From: Leptolyngbyaceae cyanobacterium
GTDB taxonomy: Bacteria > Cyanobacteriota > Cyanobacteriia > Phormidesmidales > Phormidesmidaceae
Reading direction: 5' to 3'
Assembly (NCBI GenBank): GCA_965263355.1
Contig: CBDHHL010000032.1
Location: 320,001 to 384,000, forward strand
DNA: 64,000 nt
Position numbers and translations under genes: made by a program. Below are positions 1,474-16,594 of the stretch, in pieces. The notes beneath the pieces are model-generated. The model saw only the letters and a program-made list of their open reading frames with translations. It ran no database searches and was not told the DNA's origin. Within the stretch, counting starts at the first letter, position 1, and every line of letters begins with the position of its first letter.

Positions 1474-1824
1474 CTAGGAGCCTGTGAAAAATCGATTATT
1501 TTCATGCTGAAAAAGTGGACGGCGATAGAAGGGGATGCAACGATGCCCTGGCTTTCTACCAACCTTCGGAGAAGATACTTTTTCAGAACGCCGTGCATGG
1601 GCAACCTTCAGTGTCCGTCCCATAAATTCGGCCCCATCTAATGCCTCAATAGCCCTCTCTTCCTGAGCAGAAGACTCCATTGTCATTAAGGCAAAGCCCC
1701 GAGGGCGATTTAACCTACGATACATAGGTAAGTTAATGCTGATCACCCGACCATAGACCCCAAAGGCTCTATCTAAGTCCTGTTTCCCTACATCGTAGGG
1801 TAGGTTTCCAACATAAACAGACAT
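1474..1824 (-). CDS. RRM RNA-binding protein (cyanobacterial Rbp family) with basic C-terminal extension
   Basis: MSVYVGNL (RNP2), RGFALM (RNP1-like), AIEALDGAEFMGRTLKV. Confidence 0.88.
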   Translation of the reverse strand: MSVYVGNLPYDVGKQDLDRAFGVYGRVISINLPMYRRLNRPRGFALMTMESSAQEERAIEALDGAEFMGRTLKVAHARRSEKVSSPKVGRKPGHRCIPFYRRPLFQHENNRFFTGS

Positions 1825-1845
1825 CACAATCCCTTAGACTCAACA

Positions 1846-1900
1846 ATTCATCCGGATCTTGATCAAATCACAGATAAGTGACATCTATCTTTCGGTAGAT
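1846..1900 (-). promoter_or_regulatory. rbp promoter: palindromic box ATCTATCTTTCGGTAGAT (1883-1900) + 21 bp + CAAGAT -10-like hexamer
   Basis: Same block and spacing recur upstream of the second rbp gene (2244-2298). Confidence 0.7.
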
Positions 1901-1946
1901 TGTAGAACACATAATCAAGAAGAATTGTGACGAAGTGGCCTCTCCC

Positions 1947-2207
1947 CTAACCTTTTGCCGCAGCGCCACGAGGCTTTGCCTCATTGACTCTTAAGGTGCG
2001 TCCTACCCACTTAGCGCCATCTAGCGCTTCAATCGCGGCTTGTTCATCTGTTTTAGACGCTAATTCTACAAAGGCAAAGCCACGGGGACGACCGGTGTCA
2101 CGCTCCATTGGTAAAGTAACTCGATTAACTTCACCGTATTCACTGAAGACATCTTTTAAATCATGACGAGTGATCTCATAGGACAAATTACCAACATAAA
2201 TAGACAT
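1947..2207 (-). CDS. RRM RNA-binding protein (cyanobacterial Rbp family), no Gly-rich tail
   Basis: MSIYVGNLSY, RGFAFV, AIEALDGAKWVGRTLRVNEAKPR; GAGGAGG Shine-Dalgarno upstream. Confidence 0.95.
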   Translation of the reverse strand: MSIYVGNLSYEITRHDLKDVFSEYGEVNRVTLPMERDTGRPRGFAFVELASKTDEQAAIEALDGAKWVGRTLRVNEAKPRGAAAKG

Positions 2208-2243
2208 GCGGAAACCTCCTCAAAGCAATAACTAAGTTCATGG

Positions 2244-2298
2244 ATTCATTCGGATCATGACCAAATCACAAAGGCTCCGCATCTACCTTGAGATAGAA
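2244..2298 (-). promoter_or_regulatory. rbp promoter: box ATCTACCTTGAGATAGAA (2281-2298) + 21 bp + CATGAT -10-like hexamer
   Basis: 2244-2270 is 24/27 identical to 1846-1872, with the same 10-bp gap to the box. Confidence 0.7.
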
Positions 2299-2394
2299 AA
2301 ATAGAGGATAAATCCGCCTCCTAGGCACATGTTCTGAGAATGGCACCCCACTTTTCTTGTTCGATCTCCCTCATTATTGTCTGGGCTTGCTGTC

Positions 2395-2412
2395 ATCTAT
2401 CTAAGGATAGAG
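2395..2412. promoter_or_regulatory. palindromic box ATCTATCTAAGGATAGAG
   Basis: Matches ATCTA-N8-TAGA consensus; TATAAA starts 21 bp downstream on + strand. Confidence 0.6.
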
Positions 2413-2440
2413 TTATTTGCTAGAACAACCTTTTATAAAC

Positions 2441-2490
2441 AAGGAAGGGGAATCGGCACTAGGCTCCTCGGTCGATTCCCCTTCTTTCAT
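2441..2490 (+). ncRNA. candidate hairpin small RNA (or terminator)
   Basis: 17-bp stem 2441-2457/2471-2487 with two G-U pairs on + strand, 13-nt loop containing CTCCTC. Confidence 0.35.
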
Positions 2491-2671
2491 AGTCAGGAGT
2501 ATTCAGGAGCTAACTGCAGTAAAATATTCATGAAGTTATTTGTTGATTTTCCTCGTTATACTCTTTTGTTGTTTCATCCTCTAAATCAGCAGTTGCAAAC
2601 ATCACAACTCATAGTTAGTGCGTTAAAGCTCAAGTATTCTGCGATGGTTTTATGCAAAGTTTGATGGATAA

Positions 2672-3376
2672 TTAGTCAACTAACCCAGCTCGTAACGCCC
2701 TGACAGCAGCCTGAGTTCGGTCATTTGCCCCCAACTTATTGAGAATATTGCGGACATGGGTTTTGACCGTCCCTACAGTGACGTAAAGCTGGTCAGAAAT
2801 CTCGGCATTGCTGCAGCCAGCTACAATTAGCTCCAAAATTTCTAACTCTCGGTCAGTCAACGGATAGGCTTCTAGTATTTGTTCATAGTTGGGATCAACT
2901 GCACGAATTTCAACGGTGTTTTCGTCAAAATTAACAGCTGTATTCAAAGGTTGCTTCACCCTTGAAAGAACTATACTGGCAATAGCTGGAGCAATCCAAG
3001 CATTACCTTGATAGGTTTCCTGCACAGCCTGAATTAAATTGTCACTCTCAATGTCCTTCGTGCAGTAAGAATCAGCTCCCGCAGAAAAAGCTGCCAGAAC
3101 AGCTTTTTCATCGTCATGCATAGTCAGCATCAGTAACCGAGTTTCGGCCTCTGGTTGCTGCGCTTTAAAGTGCTGAATCAGCTCAATCCCGTCCATATCG
3201 GGTAAACCAATATCCACCAGTGCGATATCGGGGTGTTGGTCCATCAACAGGTTCAATCCTTGCTTACCATTGGCAGCTTCTCCAACAATCTTGAAACCAG
3301 CTTGCCCCAGGGTTGCCCTCAGACCCATCCGCGTTAATTTATGGTCTTCAATCAGGACAAGGCGAATATCGCTCAT
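2672..3376 (-). CDS. orrA: NarL/FixJ-family response regulator (REC + LuxR HTH), OrrA-like
   Basis: LIEDHKLTRMGLR, VDIGLPDMDGIEL, YPLTDRELEILELIVAGCSN, TVKTHVRNILNKL, DRTQAAVRALR; sequence and divergent kinase cluster resemble Anabaena OrrA as I recall it (symbol ~0.7). Confidence 0.9.
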   Translation of the reverse strand: MSDIRLVLIEDHKLTRMGLRATLGQAGFKIVGEAANGKQGLNLLMDQHPDIALVDIGLPDMDGIELIQHFKAQQPEAETRLLMLTMHDDEKAVLAAFSAGADSYCTKDIESDNLIQAVQETYQGNAWIAPAIASIVLSRVKQPLNTAVNFDENTVEIRAVDPNYEQILEAYPLTDRELEILELIVAGCSNAEISDQLYVTVGTVKTHVRNILNKLGANDRTQAAVRALRAGLVD

Positions 3377-3545
3377 AGTTTACTTTTTGCTCAGGTACCA
3401 GATCTAAATGTTAGGTTTAGGGCCTACCCATATGGGTATGAATAAGGTGTTTACGATCTTATATTGCTCGTCTCTAATTGCGTAACTCTGGGCTGTGGAT
3501 AATTACAATGTTGCCCCAGCCGATTAGCCAGCTAATTAGGAGTGT

Positions 3546-5891
3546 ATGTCTTTGACACAGCCATTAACGTATCTAGAACTGGAGCGTTTTTTCTCACTCT
3601 CGTCCAATTTATTAGCAATTGTTGATGAGGATGGCTCCTTTCAACGGGTTAACCCTGCGTTTGAGCAGATACTTGGCTATCGTCCATCAGATCTGATTAA
3701 CCAGTCCTTAATAGACTTTATCCACAGTGACGACCAGGCCGCTATCACAGCAGACATGGCTCGATGGGCTGAGGGTGAACGCATCACTGAATTTCGGGCT
3801 CGATATCGCTGTCAGGATGGAAGGTGGAAATGGTTAGAGTGGACTATCAGGCCCTTTCGGGAGTCAGAAAACCAACCAACGGTGTTCTACTGCATTGCGC
3901 GAGATGTGACTGAGCGGCACCAAATTGCGCATGCCTTACGAGAAAATGAGCAACGCTTCCAGGCGATTTTTAATCAAACCTATCAATTGATTGGATTGCT
4001 GACACCTGACGGTAAAGTGCTCGAAATGAATGAGACTGGGCTGACATTTGGCGGCTTTTCAACCGATGATGTACTGGGTAAGCCGTTTTGGGAAATGCCC
4101 TGGTGGCAGATTTCAGACCAGACACAGCAAGATCTTAAAGCTGCGATCGCAAAAGCTGCTAACGGTGAATTCATCCGCTACGAGGTAGACGTTCTGGATG
4201 CAAATCGCCAGGTGGCCACCCTGGACTTTTCCCTCAAACCCCTGCGAGATAAAACCGGTGAGATTACTCTGCTGATCCCCGAAGGCCGCAACATCACTGA
4301 ACGCAAAGCGGCAGAAGCTAAAATTCGTCAGCTCAATAGTGAGCTAGAAGCACGGGTCGCCCAACGGACAGCTGAAATTCAGCAGTATGTAGATGCTATC
4401 GAAAATATGCAGGATGGCTTTTATCTGTGGCAGCTAGAAAATCCCGCCGATGCCCTCAGTTTTCGGCTGCTGCTGGCGAATCCTGCCGCTGAACAGCTCT
4501 GTGCTGTCCCCAACGAACACGTATTAGGGCAACCCATGGCCGTTGGGTTTCCAAGGATGGTGAATAGCGACTTACCTGACATCTATCGACAGGTGGTCCT
4601 CACACAACAGGAACGGGATTTAGGTAATATCGGCCATGTTCTGCCCACGGGTGAGACTCGCATATTTACCAGTAAGCTATTTCCCCTAGCAGAGCAGTGT
4701 TTGGGGGTATTGTTTGAAGATGTGACGGAACGTCGCCATATTCAGCAGCAGCTCAGCGAACAGCGGGAACAGCTCAAGATCATCTTTGAAAATGCGGGGT
4801 TAGGCATTGCCCGGTTATCATTAGAAGGTCGCTGGTTGAAAGTGAATGAAAAGCTCTGTGAAATTTTGGGCTATTCCCAAGTAGAACTCCTGCAGACCAC
4901 TCGTCAAGACCTGATTCATCCAGCCGATGCCATTGCCAGTCAAGCCTACTATGAGGCACTGCTATCAGGGCAATTAGAAACCACATCCCTTGAGCAGCGC
5001 TATCTCCGCAAAGATGGCACATCGATTTGGTGTCGTGTCACTGCCTCTTTGATCCAAGACGAGCAGCAACAACCCCGCTATTTTATTGCGTTCATCGAAG
5101 ATATCACCGAGCGCAAAGCCGCCGAACTCACGCTGCAACGCCAGAAGAATGAACTGACCAAAACCATGACCAAGCTTGAGAGTCGTAATCGCGAGCTGGA
5201 TCAGTTTGCCTATGTGGCCTCCCATGACCTGAAAGCACCGTTGCGTGCGATCTCAAATCTAGCCACCTGGTTAGAGGATGATGTTGGCGAGCAGCTACCC
5301 TCAGAAAATCAGCGGCAACTAACGTTACTCATAGGGCGCGTGCATCGGATGGAAAAACTTATCGATGGTCTGCTGGCCTATTCACGAGCAGGACGTGGTA
5401 ATCAAACCATTGATACCGTTAATCTCCATCAGTTGCTCAAGGAGCAAATTGACCTGCTAGCACCGCCCCCTACATTCATCATTGACCTTGCGGACGACTT
5501 ACCCACATTCACCACCAACCGTATCCCCCTCATCCAGGTATTCACCAACCTAATTAGCAACGCCATCAAACATCACCATCGCACCGATGGTTCTATTCAG
5601 ATTCGCTGGCAGCCTAGCGGTGATAATTTCTATGAGTTTTCGGTGACCGACGATGGGCCTGGGATTGACCCAACGTATCAAGGTAAAATCTTCGATATGT
5701 TCCAAGTTTTGGAGGCCCGAGATATCGTTGAGAATACGGGCATTGGCCTGGCCATTGTCAAAAAAACTGTCGAGGCAGAAGGCGGCGAAGTTTTTGTAGA
5801 CTCCCAGGTTGGTCAGGGCACAACCTTTCGCTTTACCTGGCCCCAAACCGTTGAGCTATCCCATGAAGCATCTAAGCAGCCTGCAAGTTAA
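3546..5891 (+). CDS. multi-PAS sensor histidine kinase
   Basis: Four PAS/PAC segments (..RDVTER, RNITER, EDVTER, EDITER), H-box ASHDLKAPL, N/G1/G2 boxes. Confidence 0.95.
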   Translation: MSLTQPLTYLELERFFSLSSNLLAIVDEDGSFQRVNPAFEQILGYRPSDLINQSLIDFIHSDDQAAITADMARWAEGERITEFRARYRCQDGRWKWLEWTIRPFRESENQPTVFYCIARDVTERHQIAHALRENEQRFQAIFNQTYQLIGLLTPDGKVLEMNETGLTFGGFSTDDVLGKPFWEMPWWQISDQTQQDLKAAIAKAANGEFIRYEVDVLDANRQVATLDFSLKPLRDKTGEITLLIPEGRNITERKAAEAKIRQLNSELEARVAQRTAEIQQYVDAIENMQDGFYLWQLENPADALSFRLLLANPAAEQLCAVPNEHVLGQPMAVGFPRMVNSDLPDIYRQVVLTQQERDLGNIGHVLPTGETRIFTSKLFPLAEQCLGVLFEDVTERRHIQQQLSEQREQLKIIFENAGLGIARLSLEGRWLKVNEKLCEILGYSQVELLQTTRQDLIHPADAIASQAYYEALLSGQLETTSLEQRYLRKDGTSIWCRVTASLIQDEQQQPRYFIAFIEDITERKAAELTLQRQKNELTKTMTKLESRNRELDQFAYVASHDLKAPLRAISNLATWLEDDVGEQLPSENQRQLTLLIGRVHRMEKLIDGLLAYSRAGRGNQTIDTVNLHQLLKEQIDLLAPPPTFIIDLADDLPTFTTNRIPLIQVFTNLISNAIKHHHRTDGSIQIRWQPSGDNFYEFSVTDDGPGIDPTYQGKIFDMFQVLEARDIVENTGIGLAIVKKTVEAEGGEVFVDSQVGQGTTFRFTWPQTVELSHEASKQPAS

Positions 5892-5935
5892 TCTTCCTTT
5901 GCAAACTAGACATAATCCAGCCTCACAGGAGAAAT

Positions 5936-6005
5936 CTCTATCTAGAGAAAGAAACGGATACCTATCTCAAGAATAAGGACATCATGGCAGACTTAGACAT
6001 ATGCT
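5936..6005 (+). promoter_or_regulatory. two degenerate boxes (5936-5953, 5960-5977) and TATGCT -10 at 6000-6005
   Basis: CTCTATCTAGAGAAAGAA and ACCTATCTCAAGAATAAG, 24 bp apart like the 9806/9830 pair; 22 bp to TAN3T. Confidence 0.4.
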
Positions 6006-6076
6006 AAAACCATCTAGAAATGTCAACAACCATTCCCTGCAGTTAGCCTCCATTACTAAACCATGTCACTGGAACA

Positions 6077-6499
6077 ATGACTCCCAAAGCGATTAACATT
6101 CTGCTGATCGAAGACGATGAAGTGGATGTGATGACTGTCCAGCGGGCTTTCGAAAAAAGCAACGTGGCAAGTCCACTTTACGTTGCCAGTAATGGTTTAG
6201 AAGCCCTAGCTAAACTGCGTTCAGCCGAGAGTGAAATACCGACCTCCCGTCGCCTTATTCTTTTAGATCTCAATATGCCCAAAATAAATGGGATTGAGTT
6301 TCTTAAAGAGCTGCGTCAAGACCCTCTCCTGCAACATATCCCAGTTATTGTCTTAACCACCTCTGCCGAAGAAAAAGATCGAGTGGAAGCGTATAATCTC
6401 CATGTGGCTGGCTACATTGTTAAACCAGTAACGTTTCATAAATTTATTGAGGTGATAGAAGCCCTGAATCAATATTGGATGCTCTGTGAGTTTCCCTAA
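6077..6499 (+). CDS. single-domain response regulator (Rcp1-like receiver)
   Basis: LLIEDDEVD, ILLDLNMPK, VIVLTTS, YIVKP. Confidence 0.95.
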   Translation: MTPKAINILLIEDDEVDVMTVQRAFEKSNVASPLYVASNGLEALAKLRSAESEIPTSRRLILLDLNMPKINGIEFLKELRQDPLLQHIPVIVLTTSAEEKDRVEAYNLHVAGYIVKPVTFHKFIEVIEALNQYWMLCEFP

Positions 6500-7716
6500 T
6501 GAGTACTATAGATGAACCCCTTAGACTTTTAGTGGTCGATGACGATGACGTGGACAAGATGGCCCTACGTCGTGCATTAAAACGCTCGGCACTGCAGTTT
6601 GAACTGCGCGAGGCTAACAATGCCAGGACAGGTGCTGCATTGCTTGAGTCTGAGGCCTTTGATTGTGCTTTTTTAGATTATCAACTACCCGGAGGAGATG
6701 GTCTTACTCTAGTGAAAGGGCTCCGAAACTCTGGTGTAAAAACACCTCTTATTGCCTTAACAGGACAGGGTGATGAGGAAACGGCTGTTAACCTGATGAA
6801 AGCCGGAGTCTCCGACTATTTACCAAAGGCAAAACTCTCCAGTGAAGTTGTAGAAAGAGCGATCCAAAACGCCATTCGTATTCATAAGGCTGAGCAGGAA
6901 GCTGAGCTGGCAAATCAGCGATTGAGGGAAACCAACGCCCTGCTCAGACAACAAAATCAAGAACTGGAACAACAGCGAGAACAAATTTATCGGAAAAATC
7001 TACAACGGGAGGACTTTATCGCTCGCCTCACCCATGATCTAAGAACGCCACTGGTAGCAACGAATCGTGTACTGGAGCATTGCCTGCAGGGTACCTTTGG
7101 TGAGATTGCTGACGATGCTCAAGATGCATTAACAAACATTGCCTCAAACAATCGTAACTTGCTAGCGATGGTCAATACATTGTTAGAGGTCTATCGACAT
7201 GATGTTGGTCGTAAACAGCTAGCCCTATCTAAGGTTTCGTTGCGATCGCTCTGCGAAGACATTGTCCAGACGCTGATGCCACTGGCCCAGGCTAAAGGAC
7301 TTGAGATGAGACTAGATATCACTGAACCCGATCATTACTCTGCCTCAAACAGTGCTCAAAACGCTTATACCCTCCAAGGAGATCGCCTGGAGCTAAGACG
7401 CTTAGTGACTAATTTGGTCGGCAATGCCATCAAATTTACAGATAGCGGCCATGTTGTTGTGCGATTGCGATCGCACAACAATATGGCCGCTAAAACCCTC
7501 ATTCTTGAGGTAGAAGATACAGGACCTGGTATTCCTGAAGCCGATCAGCATCAAATTTTTGACAGGTTTCGGCAAGGTGATCATATGCGTTCTGGCAGTG
7601 GCCTAGGACTTCATCTGGCGCAACGCATTGCCCAGCTCCATGGTGGAGAGATCACATTCAATTCAACTCTGGGAAAGGGGAGTGTTTTTACACTGACGCT
7701 TCCGATAGTGAGATAG
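6499..7716 (+). CDS. hybrid response regulator / histidine kinase
   Basis: N-terminal REC (LVVDDDD, FLDYQLP), H-box LTHDLRTPL, NLVGNAIKFT, GSGLGL; start overlaps the upstream stop. Confidence 0.95.
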   Translation: MSTIDEPLRLLVVDDDDVDKMALRRALKRSALQFELREANNARTGAALLESEAFDCAFLDYQLPGGDGLTLVKGLRNSGVKTPLIALTGQGDEETAVNLMKAGVSDYLPKAKLSSEVVERAIQNAIRIHKAEQEAELANQRLRETNALLRQQNQELEQQREQIYRKNLQREDFIARLTHDLRTPLVATNRVLEHCLQGTFGEIADDAQDALTNIASNNRNLLAMVNTLLEVYRHDVGRKQLALSKVSLRSLCEDIVQTLMPLAQAKGLEMRLDITEPDHYSASNSAQNAYTLQGDRLELRRLVTNLVGNAIKFTDSGHVVVRLRSHNNMAAKTLILEVEDTGPGIPEADQHQIFDRFRQGDHMRSGSGLGLHLAQRIAQLHGGEITFNSTLGKGSVFTLTLPIVR

Positions 7717-8448
7717 TCACTCAGGGATCACTTTTTCAAAGGCAAAAAACTTTTTATTATCTAGCATACCTAAGGGCTTGAAACCCGCACTTGCCATCAT
7801 ATCTAGAAAAATCGAAGAGCTGTAAAAGCCTAACGTGATAACTTCTTCAGCAAGAGTATGCTTACCTTCTTTAAAACAGTAATGTTTTTCAATCGAAAAG
7901 TGTTCTGACGTACCTTTATGTTTTCCTATTGCTTGGGAATAGACAATCCCATTTTCTAATTCGAGGTCTCGATCCTCATGCGGTGGATGGACACTTAACA
8001 GCAACATCCCCCCAGGTTTAAGGTGACTCGCAACGCTTTGCAGTCCTCGAACATCATTTTCTTGGTTGAAAAGATGAGTCCCTAAAAGTAATTCATCCCC
8101 TGATTGGATAATCACCCAGACGCCCCCAGATGAAATCGCAACTTCAAATGTCCGCCCAAGATCCATTGTTGCAACATCACATTCTACGAGTGAAACATGA
8201 TCGGGTAGCCGCTTTTTCGCGATATCTACCATTGCTCGACTAAAATCTATACCCACCAAATCATAGTCAGGATTAACCTTAAGTAATTCCTGCAATAACA
8301 GACCTGTACCAACACCAAGCTCAAGCAGAGTTGTTCTTTGCCCAATTGCTGAATGCACAATTTTAGCTAGAAAGCTGTGATCATAATACCCTCCATCCAT
8401 CAACAAGTCATAATACGTAGCAATCTCTTGATAATGACTCACAACCAT
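7717..8448 (-). CDS. class I SAM-dependent methyltransferase
   Basis: LLELGVGTG motif I, GIDFS, HLKPGG. Confidence 0.88.
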   Translation of the reverse strand: MVVSHYQEIATYYDLLMDGGYYDHSFLAKIVHSAIGQRTTLLELGVGTGLLLQELLKVNPDYDLVGIDFSRAMVDIAKKRLPDHVSLVECDVATMDLGRTFEVAISSGGVWVIIQSGDELLLGTHLFNQENDVRGLQSVASHLKPGGMLLLSVHPPHEDRDLELENGIVYSQAIGKHKGTSEHFSIEKHYCFKEGKHTLAEEVITLGFYSSSIFLDMMASAGFKPLGMLDNKKFFAFEKVIPE

Positions 8449-9062
8449 AAAAAACTCCTATTTATCTTGTCAAACTTATCTAATCAAAGCTCTAAGCCAT
8501 GCATTCTTATTGCATAGGGCTTGGCCATATCCAAACCAGTTTTCGTCTGGGGGGAACTACAGCTTTCAAGTTGAACGGGACTTATTATTGCCGTCATTGT
8601 CATCGCTGCCACAATTCTAAACCCATACCTAGATTGAAAACTGGCGTTATTTCGCTTAAAAACAACAGTTCCACGAGATAAAGAAAGCACATCACAGAAT
8701 TAATTACCGAAAAAACTGCTTTAGAGCAGGGATTCAACCTGACTAGGATGTAACTAATTTTGAAGAACTATTCAGCTTATTTCAGGCTAACATCTTGCAC
8801 ACTATACCAGCAAACGAACCTAAATTCGACGATAACCCGAGAAATCCTGTGTAATAGAATACAAAATCTATCCTAACTAAAAATTGGTGTAAATGCCCTC
8901 GGTACTTAGCAACAGCTACCTTTGCACGGTAGAAATATTCTCATATCTATGAATACAAAGATTGTTCGCTGAATGCCTTTCAATACAAAGAAGTGTTAAA
9001 ACGTTTTTTTGCACTTCCCCCAGAAAAGGTTCAAGCCACAACGAGACAGGGGAGTCTGGTAC

Positions 9063-9208
9063 TGGCTCCGTATAATCATAAAAATGGCTGCAATAATTAC
9101 AGAGAAAGGGTTTCAGTGATTCTCTCTCAAAAAGGCTGTAATCCTTGCATTAGCTATAATCCTTGTCTAATAAGCATTTTGACCGAATCATCTCATTAGG
9201 TAGAACCA
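9063..9208. mobile_element. putative MITE (~146 bp)
   Basis: Ends TGGCTCC../..AGAACCA flanked by GTAC at 9059-9062 and 9209-9212; removal restores palindrome CTGGTACCAG. Confidence 0.45.
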
Positions 9209-9327
9209 GTACCAGCGTGTTTCTTCGAACATGAAAACAACTAAATTTTAGGTCTTTCATGCCTTTCAGAGCAGACTTTGTTGAGCAAACATGTGACATC
9301 ATGTCCCCCAAAAACATACATATTCAC

Positions 9328-9684
9328 TCATACATAGGCGCTGATGCAGGCCAACAGATGATTAAAGGGAAAGGGTTTAGTAATATATTCGTCAGCCCCC
9401 AAGCATAGGACTTGCTCACGCTCATGAGCATCACCTAGAGCTGTCATGGTAATCACAGGCGTCTGTATCCCCTGAGCACGAATTGCGTTGAGAAGCAACA
9501 CACCATCTAGATTATACAACATCAAATCTAACAAAATAAGATCAAATTTTATTGAAAAGATAAAGGATAGGGCTTGCGCTCCATCTACTGCCAGCACTTG
9601 ATAACCCGCATTTTCAAATCCTTTTGACATAAAGACCACAGCTTCAGGCTCATCCTCAACAATCAGAATAGTTGGCACAGTCAC
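9328..9684 (-). CDS. single-domain response regulator (receiver only)
   Basis: ILIVEDE, LILLDLML, MTALG, YITKPF; ORF-track start at 9768 overlaps a regulatory box, so GTG at 9684/9678 is more likely. Confidence 0.85.
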   Translation of the reverse strand: MTVPTILIVEDEPEAVVFMSKGFENAGYQVLAVDGAQALSFIFSIKFDLILLDLMLYNLDGVLLLNAIRAQGIQTPVITMTALGDAHEREQVLCLGADEYITKPFPFNHLLACISAYV

Positions 9685-9763
9685 AATTTTGAGTAATGTT
9701 GAATAAGCTTTATCAATAGCCTTATCGATAATCAGATTTACCATATATAGGTGCTGCCAAACC

Positions 9764-9875
9764 AACATCTACCTTTGGGTAGATGTTAAATTTACCCTTA
9801 TGAACATCTACCCTTGGTTAGATATCAATATCTAACCAAGGGTAGATGATTTAATATCAAGACTTATTCTAGGTT
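9764..9875. promoter_or_regulatory. divergent promoter with three ATCTA-N8-TAGAT boxes (9767-9784, 9806-9823, 9830-9847)
   Basis: Perfect consensus matches; TATGGT 21 bp downstream on - strand, TAGGTT 22 bp downstream on + strand. Confidence 0.75.
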
Positions 9876-10094
9876 AGAAAAGATGCCCCTGCTTTGTGGA
9901 AGCGTGGAAAAGTTCTACTAACATTAATTATCTCTAAATCTTACAGCTCCAGGAATGATACGGGTGTTCTAAATCCAGATTCCTATTGCACAATTTTCTT
10001 CGCCACAACAGCCAACTATCAGTTGAGATTATCTCAGCCTTTATCCCTGTTTAACTGTTTTTTGTTTTTGCAGTCGCAATAATAGGAGAATCCT

Positions 10095-10535
10095 ATGATA
10101 CGTCACGGCAGTACAGTGTCGATTGAATACACACTTACTCTAGCCGATGGTTCGTTTGTGCAAAGCAATGTTGGCAAGGAACCTCTCAGATACGTACATG
10201 GTGATACCAGTTTATTACCTGCCCTCCAGAAAGAGCTTGCAGGTCATGGCGTCAATGATGAGTTCAAGGTACAACTTCTCCCTGAACAGGCTTATGGTCC
10301 CGTAATACCTAGGCTATTCCAGCAGATACCGCTCCAAAAGATTCCGCAAGAAGCACGCACAGCAGGTACCTTGGTACACATCTCAGGAATTAAAAATTTG
10401 GTACGGGTACATGAGATCCATGAAGACGTGGCCGTCTTAGATTTCAATCATCCCCTTGCAGGCAAGAAAATCATCTTCGAGATTCGGATCCTGTCAATAC
10501 ACTCCGGACATGTCCTGAATGGCTACTCAAGTTAA
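10095..10535 (+). CDS. FKBP-type peptidyl-prolyl cis-trans isomerase (SlyD/FkpB-like)
   Basis: VSIEYTLTLADG, PEQAYG, LDFNHPLAGK. Confidence 0.92.
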   Translation: MIRHGSTVSIEYTLTLADGSFVQSNVGKEPLRYVHGDTSLLPALQKELAGHGVNDEFKVQLLPEQAYGPVIPRLFQQIPLQKIPQEARTAGTLVHISGIKNLVRVHEIHEDVAVLDFNHPLAGKKIIFEIRILSIHSGHVLNGYSS

Positions 10536-10657
10536 CAAAGTTGAGCTTACTATAGAATTTAGCAAGGCAGTTTCTACACGTGTTACTCCACTAACGATTT
10601 AAGAGATATTTAAAGTTAGAAAGCGATTAGAGGATCAGTTTAGAGCCAAGCATCTTC

Positions 10658-11015
10658 ATGGCCAGGTACACCCATCTTTTTACTACCGTTGTTCCAGTTA
10701 CCCATCTGCGCCAGTCTCTCGCTGACGTTCTTACAGCATGTGGTCTCAATGTAATCTATGAGGCATCTGGCTATCTGGTTGCCAGGGAAAAGCCTGGCCA
10801 TGTTTCCTACAGTAAACTGGCAACTGTAGAATTGCTAATTGATCTGCACCACCCCCACTCAACCGCAACATCCCAACAATCAAGCGTTTTCTACGACCAT
10901 CAATCTAGTCGTTACAAATGAGGAACTCCCCTTGATGGCTGACAACCACTGCCAGCACATATTCGAAAAAGTTAGCAAGGCGGTGACCACTGTCAGCTTA
11001 AAGACAAATCTATGA
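10658..11015 (+). pseudogene. frameshifted conserved cyanobacterial hypothetical protein
   Basis: MARYT...ATVELLID in one frame; the expected continuation INLVVTNEELPLMADNHC..IFEKV lies in another frame from ~10899 to TGA 11013-11015. Confidence 0.65.
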
Positions 11016-11049
11016 GGCGCTACGCTGCTCAAGATTCTTTTCCCAGAAA

Positions 11050-11102
11050 CTTCAAAAATCTACCTCTGGTTAGATTTTTGAAGCCAAGGCGTCAGCTAAA
11101 AT
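11050..11102 (+). promoter_or_regulatory. box ATCTACCTCTGGTTAGAT (11058-11075) + 21 bp + TAAAAT
   Basis: Box embedded in 13-bp-arm inverted repeat 11050-11083; TAAAAT at 11097-11102. Confidence 0.72.
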
Positions 11103-11257
11103 GCTGCTAAAATGAGGGGTTTTTATAAAAGAAAAATAATGTCAATCATTAATGTCAATCATTCCAATAACTCTGACGCTACCGCTAACTGGTATCGTCC
11201 TGATCAGTTGCGCAAGGTCGCACGCTAAGTCTAGCAACATAACAGTCGCTAGACTAT

Positions 11258-11805
11258 GTGGATATGATCAACTTAATGGCAGTGACGGTTAAGTCTGCAG
11301 CAGGTATGCGAGTTTATCAAACAGTCCAGCGAGAAATTGAGCAGTTAGTAGGCCATATTAATGCCCGATTTGCTTGCTTCGATTGGACGCCTATTCAGCT
11401 ATCTAAGGAACCAATTCCCTACGAAACGCTGATCGCATACATGAAAGCAGCGGACATCGCCTGGATTACGCCCTTAAGAGATGGCCTGAATTTAGTTGCT
11501 AAAGAGTATGTCATTGCCCATGGTGGCCAGGATGGAGTGTTGGTTTTGTCTGAGTTTACGGAGCAGCTGTAGAACTGCCAGAAGCCATACTGATCAATCC
11601 TTACTCAAACGACAACATGTATGCGGCGATTGACCAGGCATTAGCCATGCCAATATCAGAGCAAAAGGCCCGGATGACTTCCATGTATCAGGCATTGTGC
11701 CATTACGATGTAAAACAGTGGGCCAATCATGTATTTCGGGAAGCTAAAGCTCGTTCAGCTGGCATCAAAAAACAGGCACTCGCCAAAGTTCTCGCCTTAG
11801 CCTAA
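11258..11805 (+). pseudogene. ggpS: glucosylglycerol-phosphate synthase (GT20) 3' remnant, frameshifted
   Basis: ADIAWITPLRDGLNLVAKEYV, LVLSEF then frameshift near 11560 to GAAVELPEAILINPYS..AIDQALAMP..YDVKQWA; N-terminal part absent. Confidence 0.8.
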
Positions 11806-11974: not shown

Positions 11975-12937
11975 ATGAAGGGTAATGCCAAGTTGTCTAC
12001 AGACTACGTAAAAACATATCTAAAAGAAATTGGTCGTATTCCTCTTTTAACTCATGAAGAGGAAGTCACCTATGGCAAAGCCGTTCAAAGCCTGGTTTAT
12101 TTAGAAGAACTTCAAACTGAACTTACGAAAGAGTTAGGTCATTCTCCCAGTAGTGACGAATGGGCTGCCGCTGCACGAATCACAGTTGATGAGTTAGAAC
12201 GTCGCATAGGTCATGGCAAGTCTGCCAAAGAAAAAATGGTAGAAGCCAATCTGCGTTTGGTTGTCTCCATTGCCAAAAAATATCTTCAACGCAACGTTGA
12301 GTTTTTAGACCTAATTCAAGAAGGTACGATTGGGTTACAACGGGGTGTAGAAAAGTTTGATCCTACTAAAGGGTATCGCTTTTCTACCTACGCCTACTGG
12401 TGGATTCGTCAATCTATTTCCCGTAGCATCGCTCACAAAAGTCGTACTATTCGTTTGCCCCTCTATATCAGTGAAAAATTAAACAAAATTAAAAAGACTC
12501 AAAGACAGCTCTCGCAGAGTTTGGGACGATCCGCCACTTTTCAAGAAATTGCTGAGGTGACCAACATCGAAGTAGATAAGTTACGCCAGTACCTGTCATA
12601 CTCTCACAAAACCCTCTCCATTGACTTACGCATTGGCGAAAATCAAGACACAGAGCTGAGTGCAATACTTGAAGACGATGGTCAGACTCCTGAAGAATAT
12701 ACCGATCAAGTGTCGCTACAAGAAGATTTGCAGAAACTCATGGCCTCATTGACTCAGCAGCAGCAAGAGGTTCTGGTCCTAAGGTTTGGACTCCGTGATG
12801 GTCAATCAATGTCACTGGCCAAAGTTGGCGATGCTCTAAATCTAAGCCGGGAGCGTGTTCGTCAAATTGAACGAGAGGCCCTAAAGCGGATGCGTCAACA
12901 GCGTGGTATGGTCAAGGCATATTTGACCACTGGTTAG
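11975..12937 (+). CDS. group 2 RNA polymerase sigma factor (SigB-like)
   Basis: [48 protein letters not shown]. Confidence 0.95.
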
Positions 12938-12991: not shown

Positions 12992-13142
12992 ATGGTTCAT
13001 TTGTCAGTCCGCCCCCGCTTCCTGAAACTCTTCAAGTCTGCCCTCGTTTTGCTCAGTGCTACGTTGCTGAGTAGTCTCTCTCCTGATGCAGCCCTAGCCA
13101 ATCCTGTATCCAACTCTCCCCTGACAGAAGGTGTTTATCTAT
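12992..13142 (+). pseudogene. 5' fragment of a secreted hypothetical protein, truncated by IS66 remnant
   Basis: Signal-peptide-like N-terminus (..ALA-NP) ending at PLTEGVYL, where transposase sequence begins. Confidence 0.55.
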
Positions 13143-13926
13143 GAGGACCCCAATCCCTATCGAGTGCAAAAAGTAGACGTGCCCCAGATAAAACCGGTTG
13201 TCGTCGAGCATCGATTTCACCAGTTAGCGTGTGAGTGCTGTGGGGCGTTGACACAGGGCTGGGACGAAGGGGTGATCAACAGTCCGAGATTTGGCGAACG
13301 ACTGACGGGATTGGTGGGGTGGCTTAGCAGTGTCGGTCATCAGTCCCATGGGCAGGTGAAGGACCTGTTGTGTGAGGTGTTTGATATAGAGATATCAACG
13401 GGAGGCATCAATCGTCTGCGGATGGAGTTGTCATATCAAGTCAGATTGAATAGCCACAATATACGGCCAGAGTAAATAAGCTATATGCCTTGTAATTTAA
13501 GGTTTTTCTAAAATTCATAGTGTGGGCCTTCTCAACGACTTGATATCAGAGTCATTGTCAGCCATCGTGGAGAGTGCGGGAGAGTATATTCAGCAACAAG
13601 CCCAGGTGAACATGGATGAGACGGGCTTTCGCCAAGGGAATGGAGATGGCAAGAATCCCCAGAAAAGCAAAGGGTGGTTGTGGGTTGTGGTGCCCCCGTT
13701 AGTGAGCTATTTTTCGGTATTTCTGTCTCGCTCACAGGAAGTTGCCAAAGCGATATTGGGAGACGCATTCAATGGCATTGTGGGCAGTGACCGATGTAGC
13801 TCCTACAGTTGGTTATGCAATGGTCAACGGCAAGTGTGTTGGGCTCATCTCAAACGAGATTTCACCAAAATCGCTGAACGCTCAGGGCGATCCACTAAAT
13901 TGGGAAAGGCCCTGCTCAAACAACAA
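13143..13926 (+). mobile_element. IS66-family transposase internal fragment, interrupted by a MITE
   Basis: EHRFHQLACECCG zinc finger, MDETG, GWLWV, RQVCWAHLKRDF; both ends truncated. Confidence 0.88.
13434..13545. mobile_element. 112-bp MITE inserted in IS66 fragment
   Basis: 9-bp perfect TIR TATCAAGTC/GACTTGATA; TCA at 13431-13433 and 13546-13548; excision restores the transposase frame (MELSESLSAIV). Confidence 0.8.
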
Positions 13927-14331
13927 AACCCACATTCCGCCATTAAATTGGCACATCGGATAATTAATAACGAAGCCAATGGATCACAGCCTCTAAAGAA
14001 GCATGAATTCTCAATAAAACCTAACTATTGAGAATAATCTAGAAATAGTTCAAATGAATTATCTAGGTGCTCAAAGTCTCTATGGAAAAGGCTTTCAGAT
14101 TTAATATTTGATTGTGACAGTTGAGAGTGCGGAATGTCGGACAAAAGCGATTGTTTGAGCGTTGGTATCAGGTCCGAGATGGAGTAGTGATTCAGCAGTT
14201 TGCTAATGGTGGAGACATCAGTTGTGGCAAAAATAGAGCGAGCTAACGTTTTGTCATACTCATCAATGATTTGTTGTTGTAAGCAGACTTGTAAGTTTTG
14301 GCGTTGCATGATGTTATCCACCTATTAGGGC

Positions 14332-16594
14332 TTAAACAACAAAGTTAAAGCCTGTACTAAAATCATTAAGAGCTACATGTTTGAGCAGGGCAATTTGCTC
14401 CAGACCACTACCAGCATTGTAGTACAAACGAGTATCACTGCCAGTATCACTCAAACTATAGTCAGAGGCTGAACCAGTAAGGACAATCAAGTCACCTGCG
14501 CCCAAACTAAAGTCTCTGATAATTGCTCGATCACCATTCTTCGCAGCAGTGTAAAATACATTGATGCCATCTCCAAGAATAAATTCATCGGCTCCTGCAT
14601 TGTCGATGAGAATATCCACCTCATCCGCCCCTTGGGCAATAGAATCGGTTCCCAACAGTTTGTCGTTACCACCCTGGCCACGCAGAAAGTCATTACCCGC
14701 ACTCCCAATCAGCTCGTCATGACTTCTGCCCCCATTGAGGGTGTCATTACCCATGCCGCCAATGAGAGCATCTTTGCCATCGCCTCCATCAAGGCTATCG
14801 TGGCCTACCCCCCCGTTGAGAATGTCATTACCCGCACCGCCATCGATATTGTCGCTACCCCCCTGACCCAATACTCTATCTTTGTCGGCCCCCCCGAAAA
14901 TCGTGTCGTTGCCACTACCACCTTGAATGCGGTCGTTACCGTTGTCGCCGTTAAGGCTGTCGTTGCCCTCACCGCCATGAATAATGTCATTCCCGTCATC
15001 GCCACTGATGGTGTCATCGCCAGTAAGGGCATCAAACGTGTCGGCACCAGGGGTAAGGGTAAACACATCATCCCCTGCGGTAGCCATGGGAAGGGAGGAG
15101 CGACCATACACCACATAGCTAACCCCGCTGAAGGCACCGCCTATGACCTGACGAGCCATGGGTGCCCCAATAATCACATCATCAAAACCATCGCCATTGA
15201 TATCCCCAGCACTGCTTACAGCCCGACCTGAAATATCAGAATAATCGATCCCATTAATGACAAACCCATTTTGACCATTCAAGCTACTTAAGTCTAGGCT
15301 GGCTCCAAAGCCACCCGATTGACCAAACACTACATAGCTTTCGCCAGCACCATTTTTACCATTGGGATCAGCCGAGGAAGCCCCAATAATCACATCGTCA
15401 AGGCCATCCCCATTGACATCCCCGGCACTGCTTACAGACCACCCTGAAACATCACCAGCATCGATACCATTAATAACGAACCCATTGATACCATCCAGAC
15501 TCTTTAAATCTAAGCTAGATTCAAAGCCATCCGATTGACCAAACACTACATAGCTTTCGCCGATATTATTTTGACCGTTAGGATCGGCCAAAGGTGCCCC
15601 AATAATTACATCGTCCAGGCCATCACCGTTGATATCTCCCGCACCACTCACAGAGAAGAAAATACTATTGCGAGTGAAGCCCTTAATGACAAACCCATTG
15701 CTGCCATTGAGATTACTCAAGTTTAGACTAGCTCCAAAGCCGCCCGACTGGCCAAACACCACATAGCTCTCGCCATCAGGGTTTTGACCACTAATGTCAA
15801 AGGAAACCCCGATAATCACATCGTCAAGACCATCGCCATTGACGTCACCAGCACTGCTGCCGGATATCCCCGAATCTATGTCAAAATCGATACCGTTAAT
15901 GACAAACCCATTGGTGCCATTCAGACTACTGAGGTCCAGACTCGCTCCAAAACCGCTAGCCTGACCAAACACCACATAGCTTTTGCCAGCACCAGTCTGA
16001 GCATTAGTAGCTCCGATAATCACATCGTCAAGGCCATCGTCATTGATATCCCCAGCACTGCTCACGGAAAAGCCTGAAAAGTCATTAGCACCAATACCGT
16101 TAATGACAAATCCATTGCTACCATTGAGGTTACTCAAGTCCAAACTTGCCCCAAAGCCACTGGCCTGACCAAATATGACATAGCTTTCGCCAGCATTGCT
16201 TTGACCATTAGGAGCAGCAAAAGGAGCCCCAATAATTACATCGTCAAGGCCATCCCCATTAATATCTCCAGCACCGCTCACAAACGAGCCTGAATAGTCC
16301 TCAGGATCAATGCCGTTAATGACAAATCCATTGGTGCCATCGAGGCTACTGAGATCCAGAGTAAAGCCAAACCCATCCGACTGGCCAAACCACATAGCTT
16401 TCGCCAGCAAGGGTTTAACCGTTAGGATCAGCATCACTAGCCCCAATAATTACATCGTCAAGGCCATCCCCATTGACATCCCCGGCACTGCTTACGGAAA
16501 TACCTAAATAGTCATACTCATCAATGCCGTTAATGGCAAACCCATCGTCAATATCAAGGCTACTGAGATCAAGTGAAGCTGGAAACGTTGTCAT
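14332..16594 (-). pseudogene. FG-GAP (integrin-alpha-like) repeat + RTX Ca-binding repeat secreted protein, inactivated near 5' end
   Basis: Repeated SAGD(I/V)[12 protein letters not shown] and GGxGxD nonapeptides; ATG at 16594, in-frame TAA at 16417-16415, then a frameshift near 16390. Confidence 0.82.

Follow-up and report, generated by a model that had tools for sequence, protein, structure and literature searches.

A conserved palindrome around an OrrA-family regulator gene of a Leptolyngbyaceae cyanobacterium is probably a cyanobacterial operator

The locus and its palindrome

The window analyzed here is a 64-kb stretch of a Leptolyngbyaceae cyanobacterium genome (contig CBDHHL010000032.1, positions 320,001 to 384,000). 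Its left part contains a response regulator gene of the OrrA family, kinase and receiver genes, two genes for RNA-binding proteins (rbp1 and rbp2), an FKBP gene, a remnant of ggpS, and repeated copies of an 18-bp palindrome, hereafter the box (Table 1; box coordinates are window positions, and the first 11.1 kb are termed the island). The box is a genuine, conserved element that resembles an operator; its kind is ordinary, its sequence is probably new, and it likely serves an important known regulator: OrrA is a master regulator of salt and dehydration tolerance in cyanobacteria.

A pattern search of the 64 kb revealed exact copies of ATCTA-N8-TAGAT at 1883, 9767, 9806, 9830, and 11058, and the boxes at 2281 and 2395 differed from it by one mismatch each, so that the coordinates in the original prediction were correct. 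The five exact copies compare with 0.13 expected (Poisson P = 2.4e-7; approximately 0.005 after 21,504 dyad tests). The ATCTA/TAGAT dyad ranked top in the window after HIP1, and the same half-sites at any other spacer from 0 to 30 gave 0 or 1 copy each. With two mismatches allowed, copies occurred at chance level in the window (34 versus 30.6 expected); hence only near-exact copies count. The palindrome is real as a motif. Its spacer had been written as N8, but the inner positions are constrained: C at position 7 and G at position 12 were invariant in the six tabulated sites, and the 18-bp consensus is HTCTAYCT-NN-AGRTAGAD.

With a combined matrix, in which the window sites were averaged with the motif found de novo (see below), only the sites at 1883, 2281, 2395, 5936, 9767, 9806, 9830, and 11058 scored at least 12 in the 64 kb. 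All eight lie in the island, in agreement with the earlier impression that the rest of the window holds no good copies. Two degenerate copies had also been named; the one at 5936 was recovered, whereas that at 5960 scored 1.8 (rank 100), retained the left half-site only, and was rejected as a box. All boxes are intergenic, as had been stated, provided that the ATG at 9768 is not the start of the receiver-only gene, which probably begins near 9684. Some of the copies depend on one another, because the 9806 and 9830 boxes are exact reverse complements that form one inverted repeat with 20-bp arms, and because the rbp1 and rbp2 promoters are homologous to each other. The flanks of the boxes at 1883, 5936, 9767, and 11058 were unrelated to one another.

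Table 1. Boxes and genes of the locus, with positions in the 64-kb window (ORF, open reading frame).
Feature	Position	Strand	Sequence	-10 hexamer and distance from box	Remarks
rbp1, RRM RNA-binding protein	1474..1827	-			candidate target
Box	1883..1900		ATCTATCTTTCGGTAGAT	CAAGAT 1861-1856 (-), 21 nt	before rbp1
rbp2, RRM RNA-binding protein	1947..2207	-			candidate target
Box	2281..2298		ATCTACCTTGAGATAGAA	CATGAT 2259-2254 (-), 21 nt	before rbp2
Box	2395..2412		ATCTATCTAAGGATAGAG	none facing a gene	114 bp upstream of the 2281 box
OrrA-family NarL/LuxR response regulator	2672..3376	-			234 aa; no box upstream
PAS histidine kinase	3546..5891	+			divergent from the regulator
Box	5936..5953		CTCTATCTAGAGAAAGAA		before the receiver gene 6077..6499 (+)
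Left half-site	5960..5977				unsupported as a box
Single-domain receiver	6077..6499	+			conserved orrA neighborhood, 32/83 loci
Hybrid receiver-histidine kinase	6499..7716	+			
Receiver-only gene	9328..9768	-			longest ORF; probable GTG start near 9684; candidate target
Box	9767..9784		ATCTACCTTTGGGTAGAT	TATGGT 9745-9740 (-), 21 nt	before the receiver-only gene
Box	9806..9823		ATCTACCCTTGGTTAGAT		middle of divergent promoter; reverse complement of the 9830 box
Box	9830..9847		ATCTAACCAAGGGTAGAT	TAGGTT 9870-9875 (+), 22 nt	before the FKBP gene
SlyD-like FKBP peptidyl-prolyl isomerase	10095..10535	+			candidate target
Box	11058..11075		ATCTACCTCTGGTTAGAT	TAAAAT 11097-11102 (+), 21 nt	before a 29-aa ORF and the ggpS remnant
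ggpS remnant	11258..11805	+			residues ~323-492 only, in two frames

The regulator and its relation to OrrA

The window regulator combines a receiver domain (PF00072) with a LuxR-type helix-turn-helix domain (PF00196). Of the published orrA primers (PMC13131328 Table S3), both that were tested match L144, one of three family members in genome G368. L144 was the best match of the window regulator in G368 at 62% identity, the other two, with NfSrr1 (L145) among the three, being 60–61% identical. The recognition helix TVGTVKTHVRNILNKL was identical in the window regulator and L144, both share a divergent kinase-receiver-hybrid kinase neighborhood, and L144 has three boxes upstream. The regulator thus resembles OrrA (Alr3768) of Anabaena PCC 7120 and Nostoc flagelliforme in identity (60–62%), helix, and neighborhood; in Anabaena, histidine kinases also lie upstream of orrA (bioRxiv 2021.08.03.454875).

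The nearest homologues of the regulator were found in Leptolyngbyaceae/Phormidesmidales-type genomes, and its nearest relatives among solved structures were VraR/LiaR, NarL, ChrA, and DevR. Relatives carry one to six OrrA-family members per genome. A quick tree of 87 rows, in which long branches meet, set the window protein apart in a clade of 22, on a long branch.

Relatives have normal boxes between the regulator and kinase genes, and the window has at this place (3422–3441) a look-alike with a 4-bp center, GCCTACCC-ATAT-GGGTATGA. Because the look-alike replaces boxes that are normal in relatives, autoregulation may be lost or altered in the window. Dsp1 was considered as a homologue of the window PAS kinase and rejected (one 109-aa stretch, 32%); the kinase adjoining the window regulator is not Dsp1, a point of difference from the known OrrA system. 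At L273 (G368:C1:3030000-3049000), next to L144, a transposase insertion accompanies disrupted PAS kinase and receiver genes; this may account for the identification of a different kinase, Dsp1, as the partner.

Occurrence of the box in promoters of OrrA-dependent genes

Within 250 bp upstream of orrA-like genes (80 loci), a matrix built from the window sites alone gave 20 matches, a density of 1.0/kb versus 0.06/kb. At a score of at least 8 with this matrix, 24 of 60 dereplicated orrA upstream regions contained a site, versus 23 of 342 other upstream regions from the same loci; the corresponding counts were 8/29 for anaK and 6/27 for sus. De novo expectation-maximization searches, made with no window input, recovered TCnntCttttGntAGATG before orrA-like genes (log-likelihood 292 versus 60–70 for shuffled sequences) and TcAgtCgtnAGnaAGA before sus and anaK (G004 family; 324 versus 61–64).

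In Anabaena, susA, susB, and anaK are OrrA-dependent (bioRxiv 2021.08.03.454875). Boxes scoring at least 5 preceded 25 of 30 anaK, 9 of 16 susA, and 7 of 12 susB genes, compared with 8–10% of shuffles and 43 of 178 neighbor-gene controls. Since homologues share ancestry, these counts represent three independent gene families. The orrA count at this threshold is circular, as the matrix derives in part from those sequences, and the comparison was repeated with the window-only matrix given above. The box thus stands before homologues of anaK, susA, susB, and orrA, as well as inside a 500-bp susB bait that OrrA binds in one-hybrid tests (PMC13131328). The best site in this bait was TTCATCCCAGAGTTAGAC, followed by 22 nt and TACCAT; the second primer settled the position of the fragment, the first falling within a repeat that is present in 9 copies in G368.

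Pairs of boxes before orrA clustered at 33 bp (12 pairs), 43–44 bp (4), and 54–55 bp (7), that is, at whole helical turns, as would be expected for cooperative binding on one helix face. The tandems 33 bp apart were observed in L001–L020, 100–270 bp before the regulator gene, with the second box occupying the place expected for the -10 element of the first; at high occupancy, activation could thereby give way to repression.

Promoter geometry

The original prediction placed a -10-like hexamer at a fixed distance of 21–22 bp from the boxes and proposed class II activator geometry. All seven hexamers exist at 21–22 nt, and such a hexamer faces a gene at five of seven box ends in the window, but only three are gene-facing TAnnnT elements attached to a good box (9767, minus strand; 9830 and 11058, plus strand). 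The rbp pair has CAnGAT at 21 nt (CAAGAT and CATGAT), with C as its first letter. Of the remaining hexamers, TATGCT belongs to the unsupported 5960 site and TATAAA, to the right of the 2395 box on the plus strand, points away from the rbp genes, in the direction of the regulator gene's 3' end. No -10 hexamer was present at 21–22 nt for 5936, 9806, or the gene-facing side of 2395, the last of which is likely an auxiliary site, and no canonical -35 element was called at the window box promoters. By chance, TAnnnT is expected at 4% of box ends, and at three or more of seven gene-facing ends with a probability of approximately 0.002; the 21–22 nt offset was chosen after inspection of the window and was confirmed independently in the anaK and sus promoters.

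In those promoters, the TAnnnT spacer peaked at 21 nt for anaK (10/25; a secondary peak, at 13 nt, holds 6), at 22 nt for susB (5/8), and at 21–22 nt for susA (6/10), with no peak in the controls. Across five whole genomes, a box followed at 21–22 nt by TAnnnT occurred 39 times, versus 20 times at 16–17 nt and 19 times at 26–27 nt (P = 0.002). The genes behind such sites, of which a scan covered 17 of 28 (among them susB, ppk2, prk, and RNase J), form a mixed set, about half of which is expected by chance, and were not used as evidence. Class II geometry, with the box center near -42.5, is supported for a subset of sites, namely those of anaK, sus, and some window genes, and not for most near-perfect boxes (49/54).

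NtcA, a CRP-family protein, acts at promoters of the form GTA-N8-TAC-N22-TAN3T, and LuxR is a class II activator at a lux box centered at -42.5. Like these class II promoters, the box promoters have a palindrome over the -35 region, 21–22 nt before TAnnnT; they differ in sequence and in showing the geometry at a subset of boxes only. An NtcA site was rejected as the identity of the box because the sequence differs.

Two further arrangements were observed. From the TATAAA that follows the 2395 box at 21 nt on its right side, a plus-strand RNA would begin at a hairpin (2444–2488), and this putative RNA would be antisense to the regulator gene at its 3' end. In G368, a box with a -10 element lies far upstream of prk and ppk2 (L323, L318); salt represses Anabaena prk in the wild type (0.39) but leaves it unrepressed in the orrA mutant (1.03), an effect that may be indirect.

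Distribution across cyanobacterial genomes

Motif counts were compared with those of the reversed motif in 201 genomes, which are not phylogenetically independent. The motif outnumbered the control in the 122 genomes with an orrA-like gene (960 versus 527) and in 8 genomes with weak orrA matches (46 versus 23), and not in the 71 genomes without such a gene (103 versus 126). An excess of at least 5 over the control, uncorrected for kinship, was found in 40 of the 122 orrA-positive and in none of the 71 orrA-less genomes. The scan of genomes with and without orrA that had been proposed earlier thus revealed an excess in orrA-positive genomes only, and the motif is not equally common where orrA is lacking.

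The box is rare (approximately 1.4 per Mb at one mismatch), mostly intergenic, and dispersed over whole genomes; an iterated palindrome of the HIP1 type, abundant throughout genomes, was rejected as its identity on these grounds. With tens of sites per genome, none is expected in the other 52 kb of the window. The box is a cyanobacteria-wide element and not private to the island, so the description of a local regulon did not hold.

Comparison with known binding sites

The Group I box of BldM, a Streptomyces NarL/FixJ regulator, is a footprinted 16-bp palindrome, TCACcCgnncGgGTGA (PMC4125116). Like this site, the box has fixed T1, C2, C6, G11, G15, and A16 and a 2-bp center (skeleton T-C...C....G...G-A). 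Unlike it, the inner positions of the box are AT-rich, and BldM is atypical, unphosphorylated, and from another phylum.

NfSrr1 is an OrrA-family paralogue by primer match (L145, G368:C1:3595960); its helix differs at two positions, and a box precedes its own gene. NfSrr1 is reported to shift the same susB fragment that served as the OrrA bait, as well as psbA2, psbA5, and ftsH2 probes (PMC11962455). The non-palindromic motif proposed for it, ATMAGTAARCYYAAT (PMC11962455), was rejected as the identity of the box, with no match within three mismatches at any window box; it was not enriched before sus (3/28) nor clearly before anaK (10/30 versus 22%).

No OrrA binding consensus was found in the literature searched, including the available parts of PMC9804601, PMC7760821, and PMC12157317; Ehira 2014, Schwartz 1998, and the supplements of bioRxiv 2021.08.03.454875 lay outside this search and Shang 2018 was covered via citation only, so an earlier site definition is possible there. 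In the available parts of bioRxiv 2021.08.03.454875, PMC9804601, and PMC13131328, the OrrA regulon is defined genetically or by long-fragment binding, and within this scope direct targets are not separated from indirect ones.

Interpretation and rival explanations

We consider the box to be the operator of OrrA-family NarL/LuxR regulators, a predicted dimer site with class II activation where a -10 element follows at 21–22 nt, and assign this reading a probability of roughly 80%. A phosphorylated OrrA-family dimer would bind the palindrome; where the box spans about -51 to -34, it would replace the -35 element and the dimer would recruit the polymerase, and where a -10 follows at 21–22 nt, activation would proceed from a site centered near -42.5. 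Boxes lacking a -10 would be auxiliary, cooperative, or repressive, and orrA would be positively autoregulated in most lineages. The reader is likely an OrrA-type NarL protein, as the original prediction held; the acting protein may be the neighboring gene product (2672–3376), which that prediction chose, or a same-helix paralogue elsewhere in the genome. The island would be a hot spot where near-consensus boxes have pulled the two rbp genes, the receiver, FKBP, and the ggpS-remnant transcript into the genome-wide salt/desiccation regulon. On balance, we also lean towards the fuller view that this is an unreported OrrA recognition sequence with a two-part grammar, in which single boxes at -42.5 activate and tandems at 33, 44, or 55 bp mediate cooperative autoregulation, and that the window regulon has been rewired to RNA-binding proteins and a foldase.

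The effects attributed to OrrA are broad. Its disruption in Anabaena abolishes or weakens induction across hundreds of genes and survival of dehydration, and OrrA controls several regulators and sigB2 (bioRxiv 2021.08.03.454875). The orrA transcript rises 16-fold under salt in the wild type and 1.8-fold in the disruptant (PMC9804601 Table S1), a weak piece of support given that the probe lies on the disrupted gene itself.

Several results weigh against the box as an OrrA-family operator. At the level of the regulator, the recognition helix is shared among OrrA-family paralogues, and no box lies upstream of the window regulator, where the best score is below 0. Regarding geometry, TAnnnT stood at 21–22 nt in only 5 of 54 near-perfect genomic sites, which is chance level and makes the "fixed distance" an overstatement; a strict box followed by YAnnnT was absent from five genomes of the window's lineage; and orrA promoters showed no sharp -10 peak (4/57 at 22 nt). 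Regarding distribution, orrA-less genomes are smaller, although the 24 of at least 3.5 Mb still gave 49 motifs versus 46 in the control; 30 of the 122 orrA-positive genomes had fewer motifs than control; and 12 of 15 orrA upstream regions of the Pseudanabaena clade scored below 5 despite the same helix. Among individual targets, treZ was boxed in 1 of 18 cases (the gene is often operon-internal), the susB site is modest alone (6% of shuffles reach it), and no good box was found in the psbA2, psbA5, and ftsH2 probes. The mysA upstream region, reported to be OrrA-bound (as cited in PMC13131328), contained in 600 bp a weak match that lacks the invariant G and has no -10 at 21–22 nt. All support for OrrA as the reader is correlative.

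A rival reading is that the box is read by another factor co-distributed with OrrA, such as a different LuxR-type or an OrrA-induced regulator acting downstream or alongside: OrrA controls other regulators, mysA, psbA2, psbA5, and ftsH2 are reported OrrA or NfSrr1 targets with no good box, and many orrA-positive genomes show no motif excess. We regard this as unlikely, since the box ranks first among motifs upstream of orrA itself, occurs inside the OrrA-bound susB bait, has a NarL/FixJ skeleton, clusters around the orrA gene in the window, and shows no excess in the 71 genomes lacking orrA. Still less probable is the strict form of the original prediction, a private regulon confined to the island and read only by the 2672–3376 regulator. 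All eight strong window sites do lie within 9.2 kb around this gene and are nearer the consensus than most sites elsewhere, the rbp and FKBP boxes are unconserved in relatives, and the regulator sits on a long branch; however, the motif is conserved across cyanobacteria and dispersed through their genomes, the helix is identical to that of OrrA, and relatives carry one to six family members. That the copies have no regulatory role and arose through local duplication or from a mobile repeat, as the inverted repeat, the duplicated rbp promoters, and the transposase remnants at 13131–14031 might suggest, is very improbable and already largely refuted by the unrelated flanks, the retention of the motif at orthologous positions, and its de novo recovery, together with a -10 at a set spacing, from gene families that are unrelated.

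If the box is the OrrA-family operator, its consensus and set -10 spacing make direct OrrA targets testable by point mutation and footprinting. It would let the direct regulon be predicted in cyanobacteria of deserts and crusts, could serve as a salt-inducible promoter part for producing sucrose, and casts doubt on the motif assigned to NfSrr1, a paralogue. As a type of system, a NarL-family palindrome with class II activation is ordinary.

Candidate targets and neighboring genes

Among the window boxes, only that at 5936 was conserved in close relatives, with a strong box in three of the five closest (L001, L004, L005) and in 6 of 32 orthologous promoters overall. Boxes preceded 1 of 40 rbp genes in the window's order; among metagenome rbp loci, 12 of 74 scored at least 5, with no clear orthologue, and none of seven Anabaena rbp rows in Table S1 was induced 2-fold (PMC9804601). 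FKBP matches were found in 14 of 120 genomes, all distant, with best box scores below 9 anywhere in the loci, and the nearest matches in the window's order were only 31–37% identical. The ggpS promoters were boxed in 11 of 29 cases versus 10% of shuffles, with no -10 peak; the window copy lacks approximately 322 N-terminal residues (two thirds) and is split over two frames. Control of the rbp, FKBP, and ggpS-remnant genes, which had been listed as targets, looks lineage-specific; the rbp pair, FKBP, and receivers are not Anabaena OrrA targets. For the 29-aa orphan ORF at 11139, neither Pfam nor the loci gave a match.

The island lies between two genes for group-2 sigma factors (445–1458 and 11975–12937), neither with a strong box upstream. 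At its right edge (13131–14031), fragmented ORFs resemble a transposase remnant by eye. Further right, 14332–16446 encodes a 704-aa protein, likely secreted, with FG-GAP-like and glycine/aspartate-rich calcium-binding repeats recognized by eye.

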